From positions 32,001 through 96,000 of the IMG/VR virus record IMGVR_UViG_3300021185_003853: a stretch of DNA of 64,000 nucleotides; one strand, written 5' to 3'. The position numbers were made by a program, and so were the translations under genes. The stretch is from a virus. The notes beneath the pieces were generated by a model that saw only the letters and a list, made by a program, of their open reading frames with translations, was not told where the DNA came from and ran no database searches. Of this stretch, positions 2,312 through 63,127 are shown piece by piece (position 1 is the first letter of the stretch; each line of letters begins with the position of its first letter).

Positions 2312-2902
2312 ATGAAATCTAAGTTGAAAGCTGCGCAGTTGATTATCGGTATTCTAGCGTTATTATTTATCTCTATTATTGTATTGATGTATCCTGTTAA
2401 ACACAATCAAGAGTTTTATGCTATTGAACAGGTTACAGTGCCTGAACAAAGCAAGCATCTTACACTTGATAATATTGAATGTATGGCACTAAACATCTAC
2501 CATGAATCACGAAATCAAACTCTAGGCGGACGACTTGCCGTAGGTTATGTTACTTTAAATCGTGTTAAGAGTAATAAGTATCCTGACACTATTTGCGGTG
2601 TCGTGAAACAAGCAAAAATAAACAAATGGTTCCTCGAAAGACACAACAAAAAAGTTCCCTCTAGAAACAAGTGTCAATTTTCTTGGTATTGCGATGGTAA
2701 GTCAGATCAACCATTAGAATCAAACGCATGGGAGGAAGCATATCTACTTGCTATCCATGTTATAAATATGTACGATACTATATCAGATCCCACAAAAGGT
2801 TCGATCATGTATCACAGCAATAAAGTGAAACCTTACTGGACAGATGCTTATAAACATCTTGTCACAATTGATGACCACATTTTTTATGGGAGTGTGAAAT
2901 GA
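2312..2902 (+). CDS. SleB-like cell wall hydrolase (Hydrolase_2) with N-terminal membrane anchor
   Basis: CMALNIYHESR (catalytic Glu), VTLNRV, YPDTICGVVKQ, CQFSWYCDG, DPTKGSIMYH, IDDHIFY. Confidence 0.9.
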   Translation: MKSKLKAAQLIIGILALLFISIIVLMYPVKHNQEFYAIEQVTVPEQSKHLTLDNIECMALNIYHESRNQTLGGRLAVGYVTLNRVKSNKYPDTICGVVKQAKINKWFLERHNKKVPSRNKCQFSWYCDGKSDQPLESNAWEEAYLLAIHVINMYDTISDPTKGSIMYHSNKVKPYWTDAYKHLVTIDDHIFYGSVK

Positions 2903-3450
2903 GTTTAAAAGAGTTAACTTGGGAAAATCACAAGTCGGCAGAACGCAAAAAGTTTGCTAGTATTCTAATGAGTGGTGATATAGATCCCTTGTTATATTAC
3001 AGATTTTTATGTAATCAATACTACATGTATATCATGTTAGAAGAAAATTTAAGAATGGCAGGATTCCCACCTAAGTTATGGGACATATTCAGAGCGCCAA
3101 AAATCCTTGAGGATATGGTCGAACTACAAGACGAATATGGATTCATATTTAAACCAAAAGCAGTATATCCACTCACACACAAATACTCGGCACACGTTGA
3201 GACATTGTTCCGTGAAAGACGATACGATGATTTGATTGCTCATATGTATGTTCGTCACTTTGGTGATATGTACGGCGGTGCGATGATTGCTAAGAAGGTT
3301 CCGGGTTCAGGTAAGATGTATGAGTTCGAGAACAAAGAAGAATTAAAAGTGCATCTACGTGAAATGCTTAACGATGATATGGGACCTGAAGCAAATGTAT
3401 GTTTCGAGTACGCAATTGCATTGTTTGAGGAGTTAGGCAAGGAATCATGA
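2899..3450 (+). CDS. hemO: Heme oxygenase (biliverdin-producing), phage HemO
   Basis: SLKELTWENHKSAE (proximal His) and AHMYVRHFGDMYGGAMI (distal helix). Coupled to a bilin reductase gene. Confidence 0.92.
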   Translation: MSLKELTWENHKSAERKKFASILMSGDIDPLLYYRFLCNQYYMYIMLEENLRMAGFPPKLWDIFRAPKILEDMVELQDEYGFIFKPKAVYPLTHKYSAHVETLFRERRYDDLIAHMYVRHFGDMYGGAMIAKKVPGSGKMYEFENKEELKVHLREMLNDDMGPEANVCFEYAIALFEELGKES

Positions 3451-4133
3451 GTTATGTTTGGGATTCGTTAGTCGATCTGCAGAATCATTTTATTGAGACA
3501 TTTGACTCAGTAGCAAAAGAATACAAAGAGTCAGGCATGGAACGATACAACCATGAAGGTTGGATTAATCGTGTATGGAGCAATGATGACTTTAGACGAG
3601 CGCATGTTGATGTTGTCGATGCCCGTGAGGAGAAAGGATTGTGGATGATGCATGTATGCGTATTCCCGCATCTAAGTTCAAACGCTCCTATCTATGGGTT
3701 TGATGTGATTGCTGGACATAAGTTGATGACTGGTGCATTTCATGACTATAGTCCTACAACACAAAAAGATCACCCAATGATTGATTATTTCAATGAACAG
3801 GTTGAACCCTTACAATGGAAACGTGAACGTGATTTGCCGCCTTGGGCGAAAGCAATCTTTAGTGACAAGATGATGGCGGCAAGTGCTGTTAAAGAGCATT
3901 CAGAGATCGATCAAGTTGTATCGACAGCAAAGAATACACTTGATTACTTTGTAAATAATGTGGGACAGTATAATCAAACTTCGAGGCGTAACCCGGTTGT
4001 GTTTGCTCAAAACAACTATGCGCATCACCAAAAACAAAATCCTCACACTCCCCGAGTGATGAAGACCCTAGGATTAAATTCAGACGATGTTGATTCGTTT
4101 ATTAAGAAGTGTTTGTTTCCAGAAGTGAAGTGA
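3447..4133 (+). CDS. pcyX: Ferredoxin-dependent bilin reductase, PcyX type (biliverdin to phycoerythrobilin)
   Basis: FRRAHVD, GLWMMHVCVFP, PIYGFDVI, AFHDYSP, LPPWAKAIFS, QKQNPHT. D55, H69, D86, N198 and H200 sit at the positions I recall for the characterised phage PcyX. Confidence 0.88.
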   Translation: MSYVWDSLVDLQNHFIETFDSVAKEYKESGMERYNHEGWINRVWSNDDFRRAHVDVVDAREEKGLWMMHVCVFPHLSSNAPIYGFDVIAGHKLMTGAFHDYSPTTQKDHPMIDYFNEQVEPLQWKRERDLPPWAKAIFSDKMMAASAVKEHSEIDQVVSTAKNTLDYFVNNVGQYNQTSRRNPVVFAQNNYAHHQKQNPHTPRVMKTLGLNSDDVDSFIKKCLFPEVK

Positions 4134-40630: not shown

Positions 40631-43600
40631 ATGTCTAGTTTAACGAATATTAATAATAACACAAGGGTAGTCAATGTAGGTAGAACAACCCCAGTTGCTC
40701 CAGGTCAACAACCTGCATCAAAATCAATTCCTGTTGTTCTGGCTACTGATCAAACCGCTATTCCTGTTGTTGAGCAGAATAAAGTTCAATCAGAAGTTTC
40801 ATTATCTTTGTTGGGTATTCCTCGATCAGAAGTTGCCTTAGGTATTTTTGCAGACGTTAATACTTACGATGTAAACCCATCAGAATGGTCATCGAGTCCT
40901 CAATACTACATTTCGGGTGATATTGGCGGTCATGGTATTAAACATTTGCCGACTGAAGCGGGTGCGCTTGTTGAAGCACCTCGTGATGAAAGTGCTGTAC
41001 TGACTTCAAAGCGTTTCTTCAGATATCAACCAGGTCGTGTATCTGCGGCAACATTCGGCATCAAGTCATCTATTTCAACTGCTGATTACGCAAGAAATCC
41101 TGCTATTCGCAAATATGGCATCTTTGATAACTTTGACGGATATTATTGGGAAACAAAACAGTCAGGTAAAGGTGATAACTTTAATGTTGTGCGTAGAACA
41201 CAATCTTTAATGCACTTTCCACCTTCGCCGTTTGGTTTAACTAATGAGGTTTTACGTAAACCCAACCCTGCTGCAGACGATGAACCTATACCGTACAATC
41301 AAACAGATGATTATCGCATCATCGGTAAGGAAGGAAAAGAATTAAAAACAGATGTACTTGAGCGTGATAGACAAGTATTAAGTGATAATATCCTTAGTAT
41401 CGCTAAAAACGCATTCAATAATCTATTAACTGCATCTGGTGGCACCAACGACTTCGCTGATTTTTATAATAACACTAATGGTAATGGTAATAATAGTGCC
41501 AACGAAGGCCTTGCCACTCCTTATGACAGATACGAATTTAAACAAAAGTGTCATCGTGACGTTCAATTTGCTCTTAAGATGATGTTGATGGATCTTGAAT
41601 GGGGCGGTGATGCACATACAAGAATCAATACAAAAAATTATCAAACAGGACTTTTCAACTCGTATTTTCCAAATACCGCCACCGGCACTCCTGTACCTCC
41701 GGGGCAATTTGAACTTGATTTGCATACTAATGCAAGAGCGATTGCTGTCGGTTTGCCGGGATTGACTTCACCGGGTGTAAGTAAGATCGGAGCATTATAC
41801 GACTTTTTAGTTAAAGTTTCTGGAACAAACAATAAAGGATTCTTTAACAGAATAGTTGCTGGCGTATCGGCAACCAATGCGTATCCGCCAATCACAGGCA
41901 CCAATGCTTCATTAACAACGCTAAGCTATGGGTCAAAGAGTAAAGTTGATACGCTCATTGATACAAGAAAGCATTATTGGTCGTATTTTGTATCGTCATT
42001 TGTATTTGTGAATAATGATCCCGATAACACTGCCACTAAACAAACATACAAATTTAATGCATTTGCAAATTATCTTCCTGAAGGTTACAATGCTTCGTTG
42101 ATAGGTAAAGAATTAAGTGGGTCAAATTATCCTTATGCATTGAACGAGTCAATAGACGGTGTTCCGCTTGCTGACGCTGCTGACGTTCTTGCTGTAAATG
42201 AATTTTACAGAAACATAAAATATAAATGTGCTCGAGATCTCGAATACATTGTCAACGGGTATAAGGATGATATTGTTGGCGGCGGTAATGCTCAGACCCT
42301 TTACAACGCATCAATGTATTATAAAGCTGCGGGGTTATCAATCTTTACACAGGAAGACAGTGATATTCCTCGTGAAGTTGCGAAACATAATCATCTAAAA
42401 CAATGGATACAATCAGATTTTGAGGATTCAGATATTACAGGATTTGATTTACCTGTCACATCACCAGAAATTGTTAAGTTAAACTCTTTGTATGGCATCA
42501 TAGATTCCAACTTCGTTAGAGAAACAAAAGAAGGTGTTGAGTTAGGTAGTCGTGGATTCGCAGGTAACCTGATTGCATTTAGAGACGGATTGTTGATGAC
42601 ACATGCAGCCGTCAATGACCCTAGCATGCTGAAAGACGCTAAACAAATAAGAACAACTGTTAAAGAACAATTTGATGATAGTCAACCTACATGCTTTAAG
42701 TTGGCAACAGGTAACGTGACTTTCGGGCAAAATGTTAAGGTTCTAACAACAGGAAATGAAACGCAAATTAGTGACGGAAACAACTTCACTTCAGATACAA
42801 CAGGCAATGTTGTCGAAACTGTTGTTGCTGAATACGGAGGCATTTATAAGGTCAGTCGTGTTTACGGTCCTACAGGCAGTGAATTTACTCTACAGGATCA
42901 AGACGGAAATGATATCTATGCTATGAGAGGTTCTGCTGATAGTGGCACTCTTATCACAGATACAATTGTTATTGAAACTGTTGTTGCGTTTATTGGCGAT
43001 GTTGTATACAATCCTGCTGAATATAGATTGGCAACTGGCATCCGTGCAGAAAGAACGATTCAATCGTATGACGGCACCGATGATACTATTCAATACACAG
43101 AAAATACAGACCCATTCCCGAAAGGTATGCAATGGCCGTATCGATATTCATCATCTGCGCAATTAGGTGATGCGACTGCTAAGTTTATTGGGCACATCGA
43201 TACCTCTTTGAGTCCTAATGATGCTACTGAAATAGGTACAATTCGTCAACAATATGATGAAATTAATTTTACACCTGAATATATTAACTGGATTAAGAAT
43301 AATGTTAAACCAGAATATTGGGGTGTTTACGAATATCGTGTGCCACGGTCAAGATTCAGTCATGACAAATTAGACGGCAAAACGTCTAAGAGAGTTTACA
43401 GCGATTTAGCAACAGGTAATACTGGTATTGTTCGTCCGGGCATGGAAGTGCTAGACGAAGACGGCATCTGGACAGATGCTGTATCAGAATATGATTTTGA
43501 CTTCACTAAAGTAACGATGCTTAAAATTGAGTTCTCGTGGTATGGTGCGGTAGGTGCATTGTTCCTTGCTTATGTTCCAATCGGTAACGGCGAAGCACGA

Positions 43601-44905
43601 TGGGTAAGAGTACATCACCTAAGAGCATCGAATCAGTTGAAGATCGCATCTCTTGGTAACGCAACACTACCAATCACATACAATGTATATGGCGGAGGAT
43701 CGCCAGCAGCATTTGGTGACGGAGAGGTTGCAACGCATACTTACGGAAGTTCACAGAGCCACCATATTGTAAAATACGGTGCTTCATACTACATCGATGG
43801 TGGTGACCGTGGCACTGTTCGTCTGTACAGCCATAATAATAATAGCCCCGTTGCTGCATATGGCAAGAAATGGGAAATGGGACAAGCAATCACCAGCGGC
43901 GTTCTTAATTTGAATGGGCAAACTCAAACATCGGGTGGCGAAGCATTGCCAATGCTAGCTGGCGGCAATAATGATTTGTCGTTACAATACTTTATGGGTG
44001 CAGAGTTAAAGACTAACAGTGCTCTTGATGCAGGCATTAAAGTTGTTTGGGTCGATACTGCTACTGATAGATTGTATTTCTCAAGAAATCCTATAGGAAC
44101 TGGTGTTACATTGATTCCTGATCGTGGTGAACTTGTTTACGGATTAGAGACAAAAGATTTCATTCTAAGCACTGTTGAAGGAAACCCTGTACGTAACAGA
44201 GTACAAGTGTACCCAACAAAGTTATCAAGTGCAAATCTTAACTCTGGTCCTGTTCGATTAACTATGAAAAGAACTCCGATATTCCAGACCCTTACAACTA
44301 TTGATTCAAGTTCAGCGCTCGCAATAGGATCAGATCCTTATATTGTAAGTGCTTCTAATGACCCATTGAACGTAGCAGAAACGAATACATATTTACAAAA
44401 CGGCGAATCAATTTACGGATGGTTCCAGGGAGTTATCGGCGCAATTGACGAAGAAACAATTTTCGGCAGATTGTATAAGAAAACAAATAGTTATTATTTT
44501 GAAGTTTTGCAATCATTTGGTGATACAATCACGCTCAATGCTGATGGCAAATTTCTTCCTGATGTGAGGTATGTGAGAAACCCCTCAGGTGAAATTACCG
44601 GCCTTGTTGCCGACACAGTAACAAAAACAGAAGTTCCTTTGCAGGATACATTGACATCAATTAAAGTGTTTGATAATCCTGTTACACCCATTCCGGGTAC
44701 AGGTGCCAATGTCGCTACGCTATACTTAGCACAAAATGGAACAGAGCAGTTAGATCTCGATACGTATTTTGATTATAATAAAGAATATCTATCCTACCCA
44801 CTAACAGATGAAGCGGAAACATTGTATTTTGTTGTTGATAAAGATACAGCAGCAGATGCTACCCCGAATGAAATAGCAATAGGATTGACATGGGAAGAAC
44901 AATAG
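40631..44905 (+). CDS. Large virion protein (FRYQPG/WYGA family) with two inserted phycobiliprotein-like KCxRD repeats
   Basis: Paralogue of the next gene; KCHRD at Cys307 and KCARD at Cys533. Confidence 0.72.
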   Translation: MSSLTNINNNTRVVNVGRTTPVAPGQQPASKSIPVVLATDQTAIPVVEQNKVQSEVSLSLLGIPRSEVALGIFADVNTYDVNPSEWSSSPQYYISGDIGGHGIKHLPTEAGALVEAPRDESAVLTSKRFFRYQPGRVSAATFGIKSSISTADYARNPAIRKYGIFDNFDGYYWETKQSGKGDNFNVVRRTQSLMHFPPSPFGLTNEVLRKPNPAADDEPIPYNQTDDYRIIGKEGKELKTDVLERDRQVLSDNILSIAKNAFNNLLTASGGTNDFADFYNNTNGNGNNSANEGLATPYDRYEFKQKCHRDVQFALKMMLMDLEWGGDAHTRINTKNYQTGLFNSYFPNTATGTPVPPGQFELDLHTNARAIAVGLPGLTSPGVSKIGALYDFLVKVSGTNNKGFFNRIVAGVSATNAYPPITGTNASLTTLSYGSKSKVDTLIDTRKHYWSYFVSSFVFVNNDPDNTATKQTYKFNAFANYLPEGYNASLIGKELSGSNYPYALNESIDGVPLADAADVLAVNEFYRNIKYKCARDLEYIVNGYKDDIVGGGNAQTLYNASMYYKAAGLSIFTQEDSDIPREVAKHNHLKQWIQSDFEDSDITGFDLPVTSPEIVKLNSLYGIIDSNFVRETKEGVELGSRGFAGNLIAFRDGLLMTHAAVNDPSMLKDAKQIRTTVKEQFDDSQPTCFKLATGNVTFGQNVKVLTTGNETQISDGNNFTSDTTGNVVETVVAEYGGIYKVSRVYGPTGSEFTLQDQDGNDIYAMRGSADSGTLITDTIVIETVVAFIGDVVYNPAEYRLATGIRAERTIQSYDGTDDTIQYTENTDPFPKGMQWPYRYSSSAQLGDATAKFIGHIDTSLSPNDATEIGTIRQQYDEINFTPEYINWIKNNVKPEYWGVYEYRVPRSRFSHDKLDGKTSKRVYSDLATGNTGIVRPGMEVLDEDGIWTDAVSEYDFDFTKVTMLKIEFSWYGAVGALFLAYVPIGNGEARWVRVHHLRASNQLKIASLGNATLPITYNVYGGGSPAAFGDGEVATHTYGSSQSHHIVKYGASYYIDGGDRGTVRLYSHNNNSPVAAYGKKWEMGQAITSGVLNLNGQTQTSGGEALPMLAGGNNDLSLQYFMGAELKTNSALDAGIKVVWVDTATDRLYFSRNPIGTGVTLIPDRGELVYGLETKDFILSTVEGNPVRNRVQVYPTKLSSANLNSGPVRLTMKRTPIFQTLTTIDSSSALAIGSDPYIVSASNDPLNVAETNTYLQNGESIYGWFQGVIGAIDEETIFGRLYKKTNSYYFEVLQSFGDTITLNADGKFLPDVRYVRNPSGEITGLVADTVTKTEVPLQDTLTSIKVFDNPVTPIPGTGANVATLYLAQNGTEQLDLDTYFDYNKEYLSYPLTDEAETLYFVVDKDTAADATPNEIAIGLTWEEQ

Positions 44906-47900
44906 ATGCCAAGACAGGTCAAAATTGGATTTGATAAGGTACCATCACCTCCAGTAAAAACGTATCATCAACTTACCGACATTTTCGGTACGCCGCTAGA
45001 AGATCTAGCAGGCAACCCTCTTGTTACAGAAGAAAATTCTGTAATATCTACCTTCGCACAGGCAAACAATTCATTATCGAGTTTTGTTGCTAATAAAGAA
45101 TCGTCAGAAAGCATTCCTATAGCAGAGAAATTTGGCACTGACTCAGAGGTAAGTACTACACTCCTAGGTGTGACTCGTGCCGAAGAACAGTTGAGTTTAT
45201 TTGCCGATGTATCGACATATGGATTAGATGCATCTAATTGGAATTATTATACTGTAGGTCAAGGCAATTATCCTGTGCAATGGTATAGTAGAAAACATCC
45301 CGTTTTCGGCAAACGAGGTTTTGCGGCATTTAAAGAAGAGACAAATGAGCAGGCATTGTACCTGAAATCTTTTCCTACGCAATTTCGTTATCCTCGTCAT
45401 CCGAGCAAATCAACTGACACCTTCTCTCCGACAAGTGATTTCGGTAAATACATAAGATTTATTGCTTTAGGAAGATGGCTATTTGAAATATGGAAAGATG
45501 TAGATCCTGTATTTGCTGAAAACAACTTCTTGACAGATTGCTTGACTATTATCAGCTCATCAAAACAGCATATCCCAATAACAAAGCAATCATGGAACAT
45601 GACTCCTGCGGGCGGATTTGCGTCTGAAGCACAATTCCATAATATAGTATACACATCAGATTCAAATAATGGCGATGACGATATACAAATTGCGATGGAT
45701 CAAATTGAAAAATGGACTCTGTTCTATTTCAGAATAAGAAATGAAACAGACACATATCCAAAATATGTGATTAATAACGGAGATGGATCAACGACAACAT
45801 ATCCTGTATTCAATCTTGAGGTGTTTACAAATAATCCTATCCCAAATGTAGGACAATACTTGTATATTCGTGACTATGTAAGCGCTGAAGTAACACGTCC
45901 AGGAGGATCTTCAATAAACTCTTCAATAGGAGTTTTAGAAAGTCGAAAAACATTTAGGTATCAACCTGGTCGTGTATCAGGATTCACATTCGGATTAAGG
46001 TTAAAGAATAATCCGGGGTCATCGGCGGACAAAATTGAATGGGGTTGTGCAAACCAGACAGATCAATATATGTTCCAGATTTCAGGTACAAAATTTAATA
46101 TTGTTCGCAGGTCAACTATTGCGATTCCTAATGATGTTGTTGAAGAAGAAGGCGGCATGAACCTTGTTCCTGCTTCAGATTTCCAGACGGATGAACCAGA
46201 AGTCCCGCCAAGTCGTGATAACTCAAAACCTATGTACACTCTCACAATTCCTCGTGACAAATGGAACGGAGATAGATTAGACGGAAGTGGTCCCTCAGGG
46301 CATATCATTAATCCTGAAAATGTTACAATGTACAAAATTGAATATTCATGGTATGGTGCAATTGGCGCAAAATTCTATGCATATGTTCCGATAGGTGGTG
46401 ATGAATGCAGATGGGTACGTCTACACACATTTGTAATCGAAAACAAATTACCTAATCCTGTTTTAGAGAACGCTGATTTTAAATTCAGATATGTGCTTTA
46501 TAATAACGTAACCGAGAATTTAACTGAACCTACGTTCATTTACAAATATGGGTCGTCATATTATATCGATGGAGGTGATGAAGGAAGTATTACTCTAAAT
46601 TCAGTCACATCAGGTACAAGAACATTTGTAAACCCTAATAATACTGGCGCAATTATGGCGCTTCACCCCAAAGATTTAATATTTAACTCTTCAACAGATA
46701 CGATATATGGCGGAACGGCTAACAATAAAAAAATATATCCGTTGACACTATCTGTATTTTCAAGTGATAATGTGCGTATTGATGTGAGTAAGGTTAAAGT
46801 TAGTCCTGATGGTCAACACGGCACAAAGTCGGTTGATCTTATAGCAGGCACTGCGTTCGAAAAAGATATTAAATTTACGATAACTGATAGAAGCCTTATA
46901 AATTTAACTGGTGATAGCCCGTCTTCATTTGATGTGCTAGACACAAACGCAAAGATTATCGGAGACGGTCTTTATAACATTTATACCGGCACTCTTTTCA
47001 ACGCATTAAATGAAGTAAACACGACAAAGGCTGAGATACTGAGAAGAGAACAATATCGATTAGGTGCTGACACAATAGGTGAAGCGGTAAGGCTTGTTGA
47101 CGACACAAGTATTAATATTAATCCCACTGTAGACACAACAGTTTTCAATGCTAAACTTACTTCATATAGGAGTATAGTTGCATCTGACACTCCTATTCGA
47201 ACTAATAGATTTAAAATACACTTCTTGAATCCCACAAAACGTGACTCGAGATATTCTTATTTTCATTGGGCTGATTTCGCAATAGGTGTTACTGGTGAAG
47301 CGCCGACAACAACTGTTGAGAATACTCAAGCCGGACAACAAGGATATCTAAAATTTGGTGCATATGATCGTGTTTATCACGATACTATTCCTGAATCAGA
47401 TTATGATAATAATTATTATTTTGATATTAATAAGCAATTAATGGTTGAATGGACGAATCAACATCATGTTAATTCATTAAGAGATGTTGCTGATCTGCGT
47501 GAAGTAGAAGGAGCCCATGGCACCCGTCTCGAGCAAGATTATCGTATTCGGGGCACTGATCTACCTATGAGCAGAAAATTGTCTACTGGAAGAGTTAGCA
47601 CAAAAGGTGTGCTAGGATGTGTTAAAGGTGAAGTGAGGGTTATAGAGTACCCGATATCTTTAATTGATGATCAAAATGTTCCCGTAAATGCTGACTTGAG
47701 GGTCGTCTTCAGTACTGCCGCATTTCCTCCTGTAACACAAAATACACTAGGAATTGCTGAATTAGGATTTAATGAGACAGGGTCGGGATATGTATTCATG
47801 ACTGCGCCTGCTGTGCAGATAATAGACGGCGCACAGGTGTATGTTGCATATATCAAAAAACTAAACGGTGCGGCATCAGTAGCCGATTTTGCATTAACAG

Positions 47901-48502
47901 GAAGTTCGACAACTTATGATCAGTCAACTCATGTCACATCAATTCAAGCAAAAGTTATTACACTAGAAGATGATAATAAAATTTCGAGTTCTGATAACGC
48001 AAAAGATTTTGTAGTACAGGACGTATATAGATTTAATATTCAGCCTTTGTATTTGTTTGTTGCAATGAAGTCAAACGCTCGAATAAATAATATCATCGTT
48101 GAAGAAATTACATCAACTGAAAGAACGTCACATGTACCTAACTTTATAGGTACTACTAATGATATAGGATTTGATGATACATCGAACATAACAATAGAAA
48201 AAGATGTGTTGACATCACATACCTTGTCACCTTCAAATTTTGTTCCTAAAGATGGATTATCAGGAATAAAGTTTGATATTAACACAAGCAATCCTGTTGC
48301 AGACGAAAAAGAAAAATTATATTCATTTTATGTGGGGCAAAACGAAGCTGTGAAATTTGGATTACAAGAAATATTTGATATTGATCGTGCTTACTTGACG
48401 AGCGGATTATATAACAATGAGGCATTATATTTCAATGCGGTTCCCGTAGGCGATAATACGTCTGCTGATGTTCAAATGACATTAACAGTTAAGGAGCAGT
48501 AA
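44906..48502 (+). CDS. Large virion protein (FRYQPG/WYGA family), paralogue of 40631-44905
   Basis: Shares FADV.TY, FRYQPGRVS, VTM.KIE.SWYGA.GA, KYG.SYYIDGGD and a C-terminal EQ with the previous gene. Confidence 0.72.
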   Translation: MPRQVKIGFDKVPSPPVKTYHQLTDIFGTPLEDLAGNPLVTEENSVISTFAQANNSLSSFVANKESSESIPIAEKFGTDSEVSTTLLGVTRAEEQLSLFADVSTYGLDASNWNYYTVGQGNYPVQWYSRKHPVFGKRGFAAFKEETNEQALYLKSFPTQFRYPRHPSKSTDTFSPTSDFGKYIRFIALGRWLFEIWKDVDPVFAENNFLTDCLTIISSSKQHIPITKQSWNMTPAGGFASEAQFHNIVYTSDSNNGDDDIQIAMDQIEKWTLFYFRIRNETDTYPKYVINNGDGSTTTYPVFNLEVFTNNPIPNVGQYLYIRDYVSAEVTRPGGSSINSSIGVLESRKTFRYQPGRVSGFTFGLRLKNNPGSSADKIEWGCANQTDQYMFQISGTKFNIVRRSTIAIPNDVVEEEGGMNLVPASDFQTDEPEVPPSRDNSKPMYTLTIPRDKWNGDRLDGSGPSGHIINPENVTMYKIEYSWYGAIGAKFYAYVPIGGDECRWVRLHTFVIENKLPNPVLENADFKFRYVLYNNVTENLTEPTFIYKYGSSYYIDGGDEGSITLNSVTSGTRTFVNPNNTGAIMALHPKDLIFNSSTDTIYGGTANNKKIYPLTLSVFSSDNVRIDVSKVKVSPDGQHGTKSVDLIAGTAFEKDIKFTITDRSLINLTGDSPSSFDVLDTNAKIIGDGLYNIYTGTLFNALNEVNTTKAEILRREQYRLGADTIGEAVRLVDDTSININPTVDTTVFNAKLTSYRSIVASDTPIRTNRFKIHFLNPTKRDSRYSYFHWADFAIGVTGEAPTTTVENTQAGQQGYLKFGAYDRVYHDTIPESDYDNNYYFDINKQLMVEWTNQHHVNSLRDVADLREVEGAHGTRLEQDYRIRGTDLPMSRKLSTGRVSTKGVLGCVKGEVRVIEYPISLIDDQNVPVNADLRVVFSTAAFPPVTQNTLGIAELGFNETGSGYVFMTAPAVQIIDGAQVYVAYIKKLNGAASVADFALTGSSTTYDQSTHVTSIQAKVITLEDDNKISSSDNAKDFVVQDVYRFNIQPLYLFVAMKSNARINNIIVEEITSTERTSHVPNFIGTTNDIGFDDTSNITIEKDVLTSHTLSPSNFVPKDGLSGIKFDINTSNPVADEKEKLYSFYVGQNEAVKFGLQEIFDIDRAYLTSGLYNNEALYFNAVPVGDNTSADVQMTLTVKEQ

Positions 48503-59188: not shown

Positions 59189-62100
59189 ATGTCAACTATT
59201 AAATTAAAAAATAGCATTGTTCCAGGCGAACGGCCAGTTGTTGCTCCTTTAGACGATGAAACTAATGAGCTGATTCTCGGAGAAATTGCAATCAATACGC
59301 ATGACGGTAAAATGTTCATGCGTAAAGATCAAGACGGCACTATCTCTTTGCAAGAGGTAGGGCAGCGTGATATTGCTGAAAATGTTTTCTATGTTTCTAA
59401 AATAGGTGACGATTCGAATGATGGTAAAACTATCGGCACAGCATTTGCATCAATTGAACAAGCGTTATTGAGAGCAACACCTATAACAGTCACATTTGAT
59501 GTTCGTTCAGGTGCAACAATTGATATTGATGTTGCAACTAACACTATTCATTTGCCCGGTCATGTTTTTGACGATGGTGATGAAGTCATATATAGAGAAA
59601 ATCTAGGATCTTATTCTTCATTAACAAATGGACAACAATACTTCATAAGAAAGTATCCTAATCCATCAAACCTGGAAATTCTTCGAGAAAAGGTTCAACT
59701 GTATACAACTAGAAATGGCGCAATATCAGGACTATCTGCAGATTTAGTTACACTTGCAGTTTCAGGTTTAGGTAATGCGCATTCCTTAACACGAGACACA
59801 AAGCAAACCACAATCTTTGTTAAAAGTGGGACGTACACTTTAAATAATGTTGTTCGTGGCACTGCACCAATGGGTGGCATTGTTGTTCCTAAAAATGTTT
59901 CAATTGTAGGTGATAACTTAAGAACAACAAGAGTCAAAGGGTTACATGCAGGAAACGATCTTTTTTATGTTCAAAATGCGTCTTATATAACAAACCTAAC
60001 ATTTGAAGGTATGCAAAGAGATGCCTCGCAACCTCGAGATCCTGCTGCTGTTTCATTCCCACCTATTGCGTTACAAGAAGGCGGTGTTGCTAATCCGATT
60101 TCAACAAGTCCTTATATAGAAAATTGTACAGCGTTTAATACGACTGCAACAGGCATGTTGATTGACGGAAGTTTGACTACAGGATTAAGATCAATGGTAT
60201 CTGATTCGTTTACGCAAATCAATGCTGGCGGTACAGGTGTTCACATCGTTAATCGTGGGTATGCTCAACTTGTCTCCATCTTTACTGTTTCATGTGATCA
60301 CGCTGTATTATGTGAATCAGGCGGACAATGCTCATTAACAAACTCAAACGCATCGTTTGGTAATTTTGGATTAAAGGCAACTGGTGCATCTGAGTCATTG
60401 TATAGAGGTGTTATTAACGCTAACGCAGTTCCGTTTGCCGACTATCTTGAAATAACAACACCAACACCTCCTAAATACGGAGATGCATTCTTGGTCAATG
60501 ATGTTGATCGACAACTGATTTCAAAATGCTCTCGTGACACAGGATTAATTGTAGATGCGGTTGCTCAAGATTTAGTATTGCAAACCAATTTCAAATCTAT
60601 CTACGCAGGTATCGCATATCAACGTAAAAATGCATTAGCAGATGCACAAATGGTTGAAGATACAGCAAACGCATTGCTTGAAACAAAACGCCTTGTAGGA
60701 TTGTTAGAAAATGTCATTCCTGTAAAAACAACAAGTGATATAAGTTTTGATGTCATAACAGACATTATTAAGTTTGGTACGGTTATCGATAATGCGGGTC
60801 TAGGTACTGCGACAGAACCAGAATCAACATTAGTAAACGGAGCATCCTCAGTCGGAACTGTTCCTGCATTGACATTTGTTGATGTGCTGAATCGAGGTTC
60901 TGGTTTTGAAGATGCAAAAGACAGATTAAAAACCAACAGATCATTTTTGCAAGAAGAAATAACAGCATACATTGCTGTTAATCATCCAAGTTTGACGTAC
61001 AACACAAATAAATGCAAAAGAGATGTTGGGTATATAATCGATGCACTACAATATGATTTGATGTATGGCGGAAATTCTGCAACAACTACCGCTGCTGAAA
61101 GTTATTTTGTGGGTGCAACATCGCAACTTGGCGCAGGGCAAAAAACAGCAACTGTAGATGCTTATGGTCGATTAGCAGATGTCTGTCAGCAAGTAATTTT
61201 AGGGACAACTGTTACTAAGTCAACAGGCAATAATGATGTTCAAGATATTTCAGGTTCTTCGGGTAGTGCATCAGCAGGCACAGCTGCACACGATTTAGTT
61301 GAAATTATCAAAGGTGTTATTGATGACGGAGACCTTGAAGCGTTACCTACAACGGTTCTTCCTGCATTTCCTACCACAGGAACTAACGCAGACGCAAAAA
61401 TAGAAATAGATGGCAACAGACGTGCATTGAGAAATGCGACAACTGATTGGGTTATAATCAATACAGGATCAACTGATGATGGTAGCGGAAACGGTGATGG
61501 TAATGTATACTACACTGTTGAAGGAATACAATCATCTCTTGACTTCACAGGAACTGATTTCAATGGTAACAATTTACCCGTATTTAATTCAAGTGGCGTA
61601 CAAACAGGAACTGACACAATTCAAATAGCGAGTCATGGGTGGAAGCAAGGTCAACCTGTCAAATTCACAAAAGGGTTGACCGCCGGTCCTGGAGGATTGG
61701 TTGACGGTACAGTATATTTCATTAAGTATGTGACTGATGACAGTTTCAAACTTGCTACCGACTCAAATGATATAGATAATAGTATTCAGGTTCTATCGAC
61801 ACAAGGTACAGGTAATCACACACTGACGCCTAAGTTCTTTTATAACACAACAAAATGTCAAAGAGACGTAGGACTAATCCTTGATGCTGTTAAAGATGAT
61901 GTATTGTTAGGCACAAACTTTAACGCTGTGTATACCGGTATTGCATATCAACGTGCGAGCGCATATACTACAGTTACAAACTCAAATCAAAAGAATCCTA
62001 CAATCGCTTCAATGTTGGATACAAAACGTCTTGTTGGTCAATTGTCTGATATTTCATCGGATCCAGATGTCCTCGCAAGAGCGAATCATGCGTTTGATGA

Positions 62101-63127
62101 AATTATACACATCTTCGAAGACGGAACTGTAAGTGTTTCAGAACCCGGAGACGGTGTTGCAGATGCATTATTCTTACCTAACACGTTAAATGCAAGTGCT
62201 GCTATTGTCACATCAAAAGACGAATTGATTGCAAATAGATTAGCGTTACAGGATTTTGTGATAAATGAAGTTACAACAAACCATTCTGGTATCTTAACTA
62301 GTCCTAATTACAATGAAACAAAGTGTAGGAGAGATGTTGGGTACATAGTTGATGCATTGTGTTATGATTTACTATACAACACAAATTCAGCGACATTGCG
62401 AGTCGCAGAAAGTTATTATATTATTAATGATGCAGGACAAACAGTTGCACAGTTAGGAAATGACCCAGCAACTGTCGATGCAACTGAAGCAGTATACACT
62501 GCATTAAAAAATGAACTTGCAAACGTGATAACTGATTCAGGAGCAACAGCAACTGCTCAGGCGCTGATGGATCAAATTATTGGGTACATAGATTCTTCTG
62601 CATTTGAATTAGATGAACTAACTGAATTATCGACAACAGGTGTTGTTGTTAAATTCATCGCAGGTCAGACGGCGATAACAGATAACAGATCACAAATTCA
62701 AGCAACATCAGGACAAGGAATCGATGTATATCGTGTTACGCCACTTGAAGATGTGCGTGATGCATTTGTTTCAGGCCATGGCGTAAACTTCAGAAAACGA
62801 AGTTTGATCGCCGCTAGTTCGATGACATTCGAGTATGTCGGAACAGGCATTGAGATACAAGGTCTAACAGACGCAGGTGCAAATACGGATGATTTATATA
62901 ACAGACCTCGAACAAATGACTTCCCGAAAACGGAAAATGAAGTTATATTTGACGAGGACACAAACTTAGGTGCTGTTTATTTCACATCCACAGATCATAA
63001 AGGTGATTTTAGAATCGGATCTGAAATGCGCATAAATAGAACTGCGGGTAGAATCGAAGGAAATACTTTCGACAGATCATTATTCTCAGTTATGACACCA
63101 TACATATTAGCAATCGAAGGCAATTAA
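59189..63127 (+). CDS. Virion protein with beta-helix region and four phycobiliprotein-like KCxRD repeats
   Basis: LGEIAINTHDGK, YVSKIGDDSNDG, SIVGDNLR, SPYIENCT, FTQIN.GG.G, FTSTDHKGDFRIG. KCxRD cysteines at residues 447, 609, 890 and 1046. Confidence 0.78.
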   Translation: MSTIKLKNSIVPGERPVVAPLDDETNELILGEIAINTHDGKMFMRKDQDGTISLQEVGQRDIAENVFYVSKIGDDSNDGKTIGTAFASIEQALLRATPITVTFDVRSGATIDIDVATNTIHLPGHVFDDGDEVIYRENLGSYSSLTNGQQYFIRKYPNPSNLEILREKVQLYTTRNGAISGLSADLVTLAVSGLGNAHSLTRDTKQTTIFVKSGTYTLNNVVRGTAPMGGIVVPKNVSIVGDNLRTTRVKGLHAGNDLFYVQNASYITNLTFEGMQRDASQPRDPAAVSFPPIALQEGGVANPISTSPYIENCTAFNTTATGMLIDGSLTTGLRSMVSDSFTQINAGGTGVHIVNRGYAQLVSIFTVSCDHAVLCESGGQCSLTNSNASFGNFGLKATGASESLYRGVINANAVPFADYLEITTPTPPKYGDAFLVNDVDRQLISKCSRDTGLIVDAVAQDLVLQTNFKSIYAGIAYQRKNALADAQMVEDTANALLETKRLVGLLENVIPVKTTSDISFDVITDIIKFGTVIDNAGLGTATEPESTLVNGASSVGTVPALTFVDVLNRGSGFEDAKDRLKTNRSFLQEEITAYIAVNHPSLTYNTNKCKRDVGYIIDALQYDLMYGGNSATTTAAESYFVGATSQLGAGQKTATVDAYGRLADVCQQVILGTTVTKSTGNNDVQDISGSSGSASAGTAAHDLVEIIKGVIDDGDLEALPTTVLPAFPTTGTNADAKIEIDGNRRALRNATTDWVIINTGSTDDGSGNGDGNVYYTVEGIQSSLDFTGTDFNGNNLPVFNSSGVQTGTDTIQIASHGWKQGQPVKFTKGLTAGPGGLVDGTVYFIKYVTDDSFKLATDSNDIDNSIQVLSTQGTGNHTLTPKFFYNTTKCQRDVGLILDAVKDDVLLGTNFNAVYTGIAYQRASAYTTVTNSNQKNPTIASMLDTKRLVGQLSDISSDPDVLARANHAFDEIIHIFEDGTVSVSEPGDGVADALFLPNTLNASAAIVTSKDELIANRLALQDFVINEVTTNHSGILTSPNYNETKCRRDVGYIVDALCYDLLYNTNSATLRVAESYYIINDAGQTVAQLGNDPATVDATEAVYTALKNELANVITDSGATATAQALMDQIIGYIDSSAFELDELTELSTTGVVVKFIAGQTAITDNRSQIQATSGQGIDVYRVTPLEDVRDAFVSGHGVNFRKRSLIAASSMTFEYVGTGIEIQGLTDAGANTDDLYNRPRTNDFPKTENEVIFDEDTNLGAVYFTSTDHKGDFRIGSEMRINRTAGRIEGNTFDRSLFSVMTPYILAIEGN

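Follow-up and report, generated by a model that had tools for sequence, protein, structure and literature searches.

A cassette of two phycobiliprotein-like domains inserted in a virion structural protein of a TIM5-like cyanophage

Results

A two-domain insertion in the virion structural protein P0001

Analysis of a 64,000-nucleotide stretch of viral DNA (hereafter the window; bases 32001-96000 of the 114-kb IMG/VR virus record IMGVR_UViG_3300021185_003853, which is rated 67% complete) revealed that one of its genes, P0001 (1424 amino acids (aa); 40631..44905, + strand), encodes a virion structural protein of the phrog_1645 type into which a cassette of two domains homologous to phycobiliproteins has been inserted, with the Cys, Arg and Asp triad intact. 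In phycobiliproteins, this cysteine forms the thioether to the bilin, while the arginine and the aspartate hold the bilin propionate and the pyrrole nitrogens. The window's phage is a marine cyanobacterial virus whose closest cultured relatives are the TIM5-like cyanophages, and P0001 is the orthologue of gp120 of S-TIM5. An initial annotation, made from the DNA letters alone, had taken the insert for a putative bilin-binding domain on account of its motif, and the relation to phycobiliproteins is now borne out both by sequence profiles and by the predicted fold. We are highly confident that the domains, termed units below, are phycobiliprotein homologues, and by sequence they are closest to phycocyanin alpha.

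P0001 is followed by P0002 (1198 aa; 44906..48502, + strand), a paralogue without any unit, which is the orthologue of S-TIM5 gp119. Both proteins match phrog_1645 in a profile search (E 5.6e-26 for P0001), and both gp120 and gp119 are annotated as 'virion structural protein'. BLASTP showed gp120 to be collinear with P0001 over the N-terminal scaffold (aa 14-232; 40670..41326, + strand), which is 52% identical to residues 5-226 of gp120 and partly common to the paralogue, and over the C-terminal scaffold (aa 887-1424; 43289..44905, + strand), common to gp120 and the paralogue. Between these two parts lie the two-domain cassette (aa ~233-645; 41327..42565, + strand), found neither in gp120 nor in the paralogue, and a beta-rich part (aa ~646-886; 42566..43288, + strand), which is absent from the paralogue and whose start is common to gp120. 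An RDGL...DPSL motif stands directly after residue 226 in gp120 and at aa ~648 in P0001; because gp120 resumes at this motif, the net insertion corresponds to aa ~233-645, that is, ~410 aa, which equals the length difference between P0001 and gp120 and spans exactly the two CxRD domains. Judged by sequence, the beta-rich stretch of ~240 aa behind the cassette is orthologous scaffold, at least at its start. The initial annotation had described an insertion of roughly 700 aa. This figure stands when P0001 is set against its paralogue, since BLASTP (aa 123-190 pairing with 343-403 of P0002, and aa 889-1067 with 437-566) leaves ~700 aa of P0001 opposite ~35-45 aa, but it shrinks to the net ~410 aa once gp120 is the reference.

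Unit 1 (aa 236-406; 41336..41848, + strand) is a phycobiliprotein-like globin domain according to an AlphaFold model and to hhalign against C-phycocyanin alpha (CpcA), and bears the motif K306-C307-H-R309-D310 (41546..41560, + strand), equivalent to Cys84/Arg86/Asp87. Unit 2 (aa ~437-633; 41939..42529, + strand), likewise assigned by the model and hhalign, is a second and more derived globin-fold domain, with the motif K532-C533-A-R535-D536 (42224..42238, + strand) and a beta-containing loop ahead of the Cys helix. The two Cys codons were located where they had initially been reported (Cys307 at 41549, KCHRDVQFALKMMLMDLEWGG; Cys533 at 42227, KCARDLEYIVNGYKDDIVGGGN), and comparison with printed alignments confirmed that KCARD is the sequence found at Cys84 of C-phycocyanin alpha. 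Only three cysteines are present in the whole of P0001, two of them within K-C-x-R-D, and no CxRD occurs in P0002.

Relation of the units to phycobiliproteins

A profile built from the six units of the window (two in P0001 and four in P0003, a second virion protein described below) was compared with 177,635 PDB sequences and returned phycocyanin alpha first, over 23 residues only (E 0.056). With a deeper profile of 146 units, the match to phycocyanin alpha reached E 7.7e-5 over residues 33-103, the unit Cys falling on Cys84, and phycobiliproteins accounted for 41 of the 42 PDB matches. Using CpcA and CpcB references taken from the cpcBA loci of cyanobacterial genomes, hhalign scored the unit profile at 94.6% with CpcA and, across 97 columns, at 93.2% with CpcA and CpcB combined, and gave 94.4% over CpcA 78-161 for the profile of the P0001 unit-1 family. 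Pfam and PDB sequence searches with the three proteins P0001 to P0003 were empty, and a Pfam scan of the six units yielded chance-level matches only. We have classed the units with the bilin-binding globins, as a new and divergent family outside PF00502; no description of phycobiliprotein-like domains in phage structural proteins was found in the literature.

Two AlphaFold models were then considered, one of P0001 aa 236-700 with a 51-sequence alignment (predicted local distance difference test (pLDDT) 83.8; predicted template-modelling score (pTM) 0.86), and one of a P0003 unit (aa 547-703) with the 146-unit alignment (pLDDT 91.6). In VIA-align, unit 1 (model residues 1-171) aligned with phycobiliproteins at Z 11.6-13.5 and a root-mean-square deviation (rmsd) of 2.4-2.8 Å over 124-134 residues, covering residues ~28-161 of the 160-aa phycobiliprotein chains. 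When both models were compared, in an unbiased run, with 48,161 PDB representatives, the top nine were allophycocyanin, ApcE, phycoerythrin and photocobilin chains (Z 10.1-12.7), followed by sensor globins (Z 8-10) and then by haemoglobins (Z ~6), the ranking being alike in both models. Unit 2 (model residues 202-398) matched the RsbR non-heme globin (Z 9.8 and 7.9). In Foldseek, allophycocyanin, phycoerythrin and phycocyanin led the matches of the P0001 model, and phycobiliproteins led those of the P0003 model too. Our reading of the fold draws on the Z-scores of VIA-align, on the order of the matches and on the sequence profiles, which are independent evidence. By homology, the motif Cys would lie in the ligand cleft, on helix E, a placement based on the sequence alignments together with the structural alignment ranges.

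Conservation of the motif and the related units of P0003

A search with P0001 aa 190-900 identified 60 insert-bearing metagenomic proteins, the lowest identity being 28%. In an alignment of 51 of these, full-length homologues, K306, C307, R309, D310, K532, C533, R535 and D536 are all invariant, so that the Cys, contrary to one of the refuting outcomes named at the outset, is retained along with Arg and Asp at identities down to ~28% over the insert. A tblastn search with the insert as query matched none of 50,697 phage records; the insert-bearing form of P0001 is known from metagenomes only.

The second unit-bearing protein of the window, P0003 (1312 aa; 59189..63127, + strand), is beta-helical, fibre-like, and contains four complete units, with Cys codons at 60527, 61013, 61856 and 62324, plus a half unit. 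K-C-x-R-D is kept in all six copies present in the window, as initially noted for CxRD. The proposed homology between the insert and the repeats of P0003 was upheld by hhalign against units from viral contigs, at 97.7% for unit 1 and 97.9% for unit 2. Moreover, a hidden Markov model (HMM) made solely from units of other viral contigs, without any window sequence, matched exactly two open reading frames of the window, namely P0003 (E 5e-123) and P0001 (E 3.6e-17; unit 1, E 4e-5; unit 2, E 2.5e-10). Unit 1 and unit 2 aligned with each other profile to profile at 98.9% (hhalign), and pairwise BLAST linked unit 2 to three P0003 units with E 1e-5 to 1e-7. Within P0003, the half unit (aa 705-756; 61301-61456) comprises the N-terminal helices only (independent E-value 6e-5) and sits right behind the second complete unit. 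The P0003 units alternate between two types, with 36% identity over 150 aa between units 1 and 3 and 47% over 100 aa between units 2 and 4, a sequence pattern that points to duplication of a two-unit cassette.

Scanning IMG/VR for units returned at least 570 stretches, from which 80 loci were kept for analysis; these contain open frames in which up to 13 CxRD motifs occur within 2,100 aa, spaced 140-165 aa apart, a period equal to the length of a phycobiliprotein domain. Among 548 units found by the HMM in foreign loci, the Cys is conserved in 94%, the Arg in 93% and the Asp in 98%, at a mean column identity of 13%; these three figures are somewhat inflated, as the HMM itself favours the motif, a bias of which the invariance in the 51 homologues is free. 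About 6% of the foreign units have lost the Cys to F, W, Y or T but retain the Asp, and such units are possibly non-covalent binders or pigment-free. The 146-unit alignment further displays an invariant Asp at Cys+14 and a near-invariant Tyr at Cys+30, neither of which was part of the pattern used for selection.

Distribution of the unit

Screening 1.84 billion representative proteins with a cut-off of E 0.001 identified 1,656 with the unit, the largest array consisting of 37 matched stretches in one protein of 5,984 aa; all unit-bearing representatives that were looked up are named 'hypothetical protein'. The 194-203 matches among the 50,697 phage records all come from Synechococcus or Prochlorococcus phages, the annotated unit-bearing proteins being 'tail fiber', 'short tail fiber', 'gp7 baseplate wedge' and 'structural protein', and every named match in BFVD is from a Synechococcus phage. 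No unit was detected in Pelagibacter phage HTVC008M, a member of the same family as the T4-like cyanophages, nor anywhere in the genome of S-TIM5. A narrow peptide pattern of B-type units found no relative in 185,579 species genomes, from which an absence of the unit in cells should not be concluded. At 50-176 kb, the contigs that bear the longest arrays are rated as 14-49% complete, which implies full genomes of nearly 350 kb. Overall, the unit occurs in (i) the phrog_1645 scaffold, (ii) the beta-helical P0003, and (iii) giant gp7 baseplate-wedge and 'short tail fiber' proteins of T4-like cyanophages, in keeping with the mobile module that had been proposed at the outset. The cassette in P0001 is an acquisition of the window's lineage and its ~60 metagenomic relatives.

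Gene context and bilin genes

An open reading frame upstream of P0001 (34081-36216) terminates in a tail-fibre C-terminal domain, and P0003 matches tail-fibre PHROGs; because of these neighbours, the P0001 gene is placed within a host-recognition block. Unnamed viral clusters were all that the ESM Atlas offered for the scaffold (paralogue aa 320-700), whose place in the virion is thus indicated no further than by its tail-fibre gene neighbourhood.

The window's phage possesses genes for a heme oxygenase (2899..3450, + strand) and a ferredoxin-dependent bilin reductase (3447..4133, + strand), the latter overlapping the heme oxygenase stop, ~37 kb upstream of P0001. They belong to a run of three overlapping genes (2312-4133) that starts with a cell-wall hydrolase (PF07486). 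The same pair is present in 1 of 15 other unit-bearing contig fragments; in contig G004 (locus L056), it lies at an almost identical contig position. Also in this part of the window, at 105-2174, is a phage protein that combines a CHASE2 sensor domain with an adenylate/guanylate cyclase catalytic domain. As for the isolates, P-HM2 has both heme oxygenase and reductase and S-PM2 has neither. The lyase gene cpeT is present in the unit-bearing S-PM2 and P-HM2 and absent from the unit-free P-SSM2, P-SSP7 and S-TIM5. In S-PM2 (LN828717, locus L171, 3409-16724), cpeT lies 1.4 kb upstream of the gene for the 3,779-aa unit-bearing protein S-PM2d218, with tRNAs and a 2OG-Fe(II) oxygenase gene in between; in P-HM2 (locus L172, 2863-3267), it is located between gp5 and the fibre genes.

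Units and light-dependent adsorption

Adsorption in the dark is reported for P-SSM2, P-SSP7 and P-GSP1 but not for the cyanophages P-HM1 and P-HM2, which do not adsorb without light (Liu et al. 2019, PMC6628666; also PMC7112961). Adsorption of S-PM2, according to the account of Jia et al. 2010 given in PMC6628666, is light-dependent and independent of host photosynthesis. The mechanism has been left open between host receptors and tail fibres (PMC6628666). By profile, S-PM2 has 10 units and P-HM2 and P-HM1 have 4 each, while P-SSM2, P-SSP7 and P-GSP1 have none; units are thus present in 3/3 light-requiring versus 0/3 dark-adsorbing phages. We treat this correspondence between unit presence and light-dependent adsorption as a lead, not a test.

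Discussion

We consider it reasonably probable, short of confident, that the units are phycobiliprotein homologues that also bind bilin. Because the helix-E Cys-x-Arg-Asp is kept, each unit most likely binds a linear tetrapyrrole. In the explanation that we favour, P0001 is a late virion protein encoded in the tail-fibre/baseplate gene block of a TIM5-like cyanophage, and the ~410-aa cassette of two globin-fold domains has entered a variable site of its scaffold. The tetrapyrrole would come from host synthesis or be produced by the heme oxygenase and bilin reductase of the phage itself. Its attachment would take place within the infected cell, ahead of particle assembly, and would be autocatalytic, as it is in the BBAG globins, or depend on a lyase of either host or phage. 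As a result, the host-recognition apparatus of the virion would be pigmented. Bilin attachment without a lyase has been described for BBAG-1 and BBAG-3, which are distantly related globins with CXRD (Rockwell, Martin and Lagarias 2023, PMC10151467); as such globins manage without the enzyme, a missing lyase is not fatal to the case for a bilin. It is more speculative that the chromophore makes adsorption light-dependent. The bilin-loaded units would in that case turn the virion into a photoreceptor, in which light switches the conformation of the fibre or baseplate and so licenses adsorption, a proposal that we put forward as decidedly doubtful.

Several results weigh against bilin binding, against a role in adsorption, or against the phycobiliprotein relation itself. 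We know of no report of coloured cyanophage particles. No CpeT lyase was found in the window's 67%-complete record, and neither psbA nor cpeT was found in 15 long unit-bearing contigs, all of them fragments; CpeT as an obligatory partner of the units fits the five isolates, but not the window record or these 15 fragments. P-SSM2 has heme oxygenase and bilin reductase yet no units, and phage bilin genes therefore do not exist solely for the units. The adsorption comparison comes down to about four independent cases, as P-HM1 and P-HM2 belong to a single species and the two podoviruses are related to each other. With regard to homology, PF00502 had no match at E up to 1-10, whether in the proteins, in the six separate units or in the phage record as a whole, and unit 2 matches CpcA in hhalign over the motif only. 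The structural alignments of unit 1 begin at about residue 28, and the X-Y hairpin, which is involved in alpha-beta pairing, appears to be missing; this is read from alignment ranges only, which start at ~27-34 for unit 1 and sometimes at 14, with high rmsd, for the P0003 unit. The invariant Asp at Cys+14 is a feature of the units that is not found in phycobiliproteins. Finally, the Foldseek E-values are weak (0.05-1) and never below 0.001, and VIA-align itself warns that helical models can reach Z ~13 through arrangement alone.

Part of this evidence would suit units that derive from phycobiliproteins and are nonetheless pigment-free, their fold having been taken over as a compact helical element for building or spacing fibres, with the triad kept for folding, for domain contacts or for another ligand, such as a host surface component. 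The long tandem arrays, with up to 37 units per protein, resemble those of structural repeats, and the fact that no lyase gene was found in the window record or the 15 contigs, the replacement of the Cys in ~6% of the units and the units' own Asp at Cys+14 all agree with such a role. A spacer, however, has no obvious need for three bilin-binding residues kept at 93-98% amid 13% column identity, and the restriction of the unit, among isolates, to phages of pigment-making hosts is a better fit to a pigment role; on balance we hold a pigment-free building block to be a serious but somewhat unlikely explanation. The conserved Cys could instead serve cross-linking, through disulfides between units or between fibre subunits, given that two of just three P0001 cysteines stand in the motifs and that extracellular virion proteins could become oxidised. 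Odd motif counts per open frame (3, 5, 7, 9, 11, 13) are nevertheless common, the co-conservation of Arg and Asp with the Cys would be left unexplained, and by homology the Cys belongs to the ligand cleft of helix E, all of which makes cross-linking very improbable.

We give even less credence to the idea that the phycobiliprotein likeness is convergent or an artefact, produced by a chance motif and a helical bundle predicted to be globin-shaped. The short PDB match of the six-unit profile (23 residues, E 0.056), the Foldseek values and the Z ~13 that helical models often attain would be in line with it. Against it, the deeper profile widens the match to 70-97 columns (E 7.7e-5; hhalign 93-95%), the two models yield one and the same graded ranking, from phycobiliproteins through the bilin-binding photocobilins and sensor globins to haemoglobins, and the unit period of 140-165 aa equals a phycobiliprotein domain.

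Among known systems, the light-harvesting phycobiliproteins, above all C-phycocyanin alpha (CpcA; PF00502), share with the units the all-helical globin-like fold with helices A to H (A, B, E, F', F, G, H), as predicted for the latter, the K-C-x-R-D-x-G-Y...G-G sequence on helix E with the unit Cys on Cys84, and a domain length of ~140-165 aa, and they are the best matches in both sequence and fold. Unlike CpcA, which is a free subunit of 160-170 aa, the units lie inside, or in tandem within, giant virion proteins, score below the PF00502 threshold, have the extra invariant Asp at Cys+14 and, in the case of unit 1, apparently lack the X-Y hairpin; with respect to ring or rod assembly and pigment of the CpcA type, the phage units are known here from sequence and models alone. 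ApcE, whose chains are among the top fold matches of the units, offers a parallel in that a phycobiliprotein domain is embedded in a large multidomain protein and broken by a loop insertion, and it attaches its bilin autocatalytically. It differs in being a cellular antenna component with one such domain, whose Cys is not at the Cys84 equivalent. The scaffolds of P0001 and P0002 correspond to S-TIM5 gp120 and gp119 (phrog_1645), the difference being that S-TIM5 has no unit in its genome and hence no cassette in gp120. BBAG-1, BBAG-3 and the photoglobins or photocobilins (PMC10151467) resemble the units as distant phycobiliprotein relatives outside the antenna, BBAG-1 and BBAG-3 having kept CXRD; photocobilin chains are among the top fold matches of both unit models, and the RsbR globin, used as outgroup in PMC10151467, is the best match of unit 2. 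The BBAGs, however, are small cellular proteins encoded beside heme oxygenase/reductase genes, whereas the phage units are part of structural proteins, with such genes ~37 kb away.

These findings bring two cyanophage questions within reach of the bench, namely the basis of light-dependent adsorption and the purpose of phage bilin genes. For the former, a pigment-protein domain in fibre and baseplate proteins of just the phages that need light would be a concrete candidate. For the latter, bilin synthesis genes and CpeT of phages are usually explained only as support of the host antenna, and bilin genes are also found in phages of Prochlorococcus, a host without phycobilisomes; the motif-bearing virion proteins are a possible substrate of the phage's own for these enzymes. 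The module is mobile, as the cassette resides in a scaffold whose S-TIM5 orthologue is without it and the unit recurs in the unrelated P0003. The large unannotated family to which the units belong may also yield small bilin-binding fluorescent tags of the smURFP kind. Were the virion indeed a photoreceptor, this would account for the strictly light-dependent adsorption of S-PM2, P-HM1 and P-HM2, irrespective of host photosynthesis, for the bilin synthesis genes of cyanophages, and for their CpeT lyase, whose gene position beside fibre genes is otherwise unexplained; it would also mean that a module for sensing light can be built into virion scaffolds unrelated to each other, and beyond the T4-like lineage.

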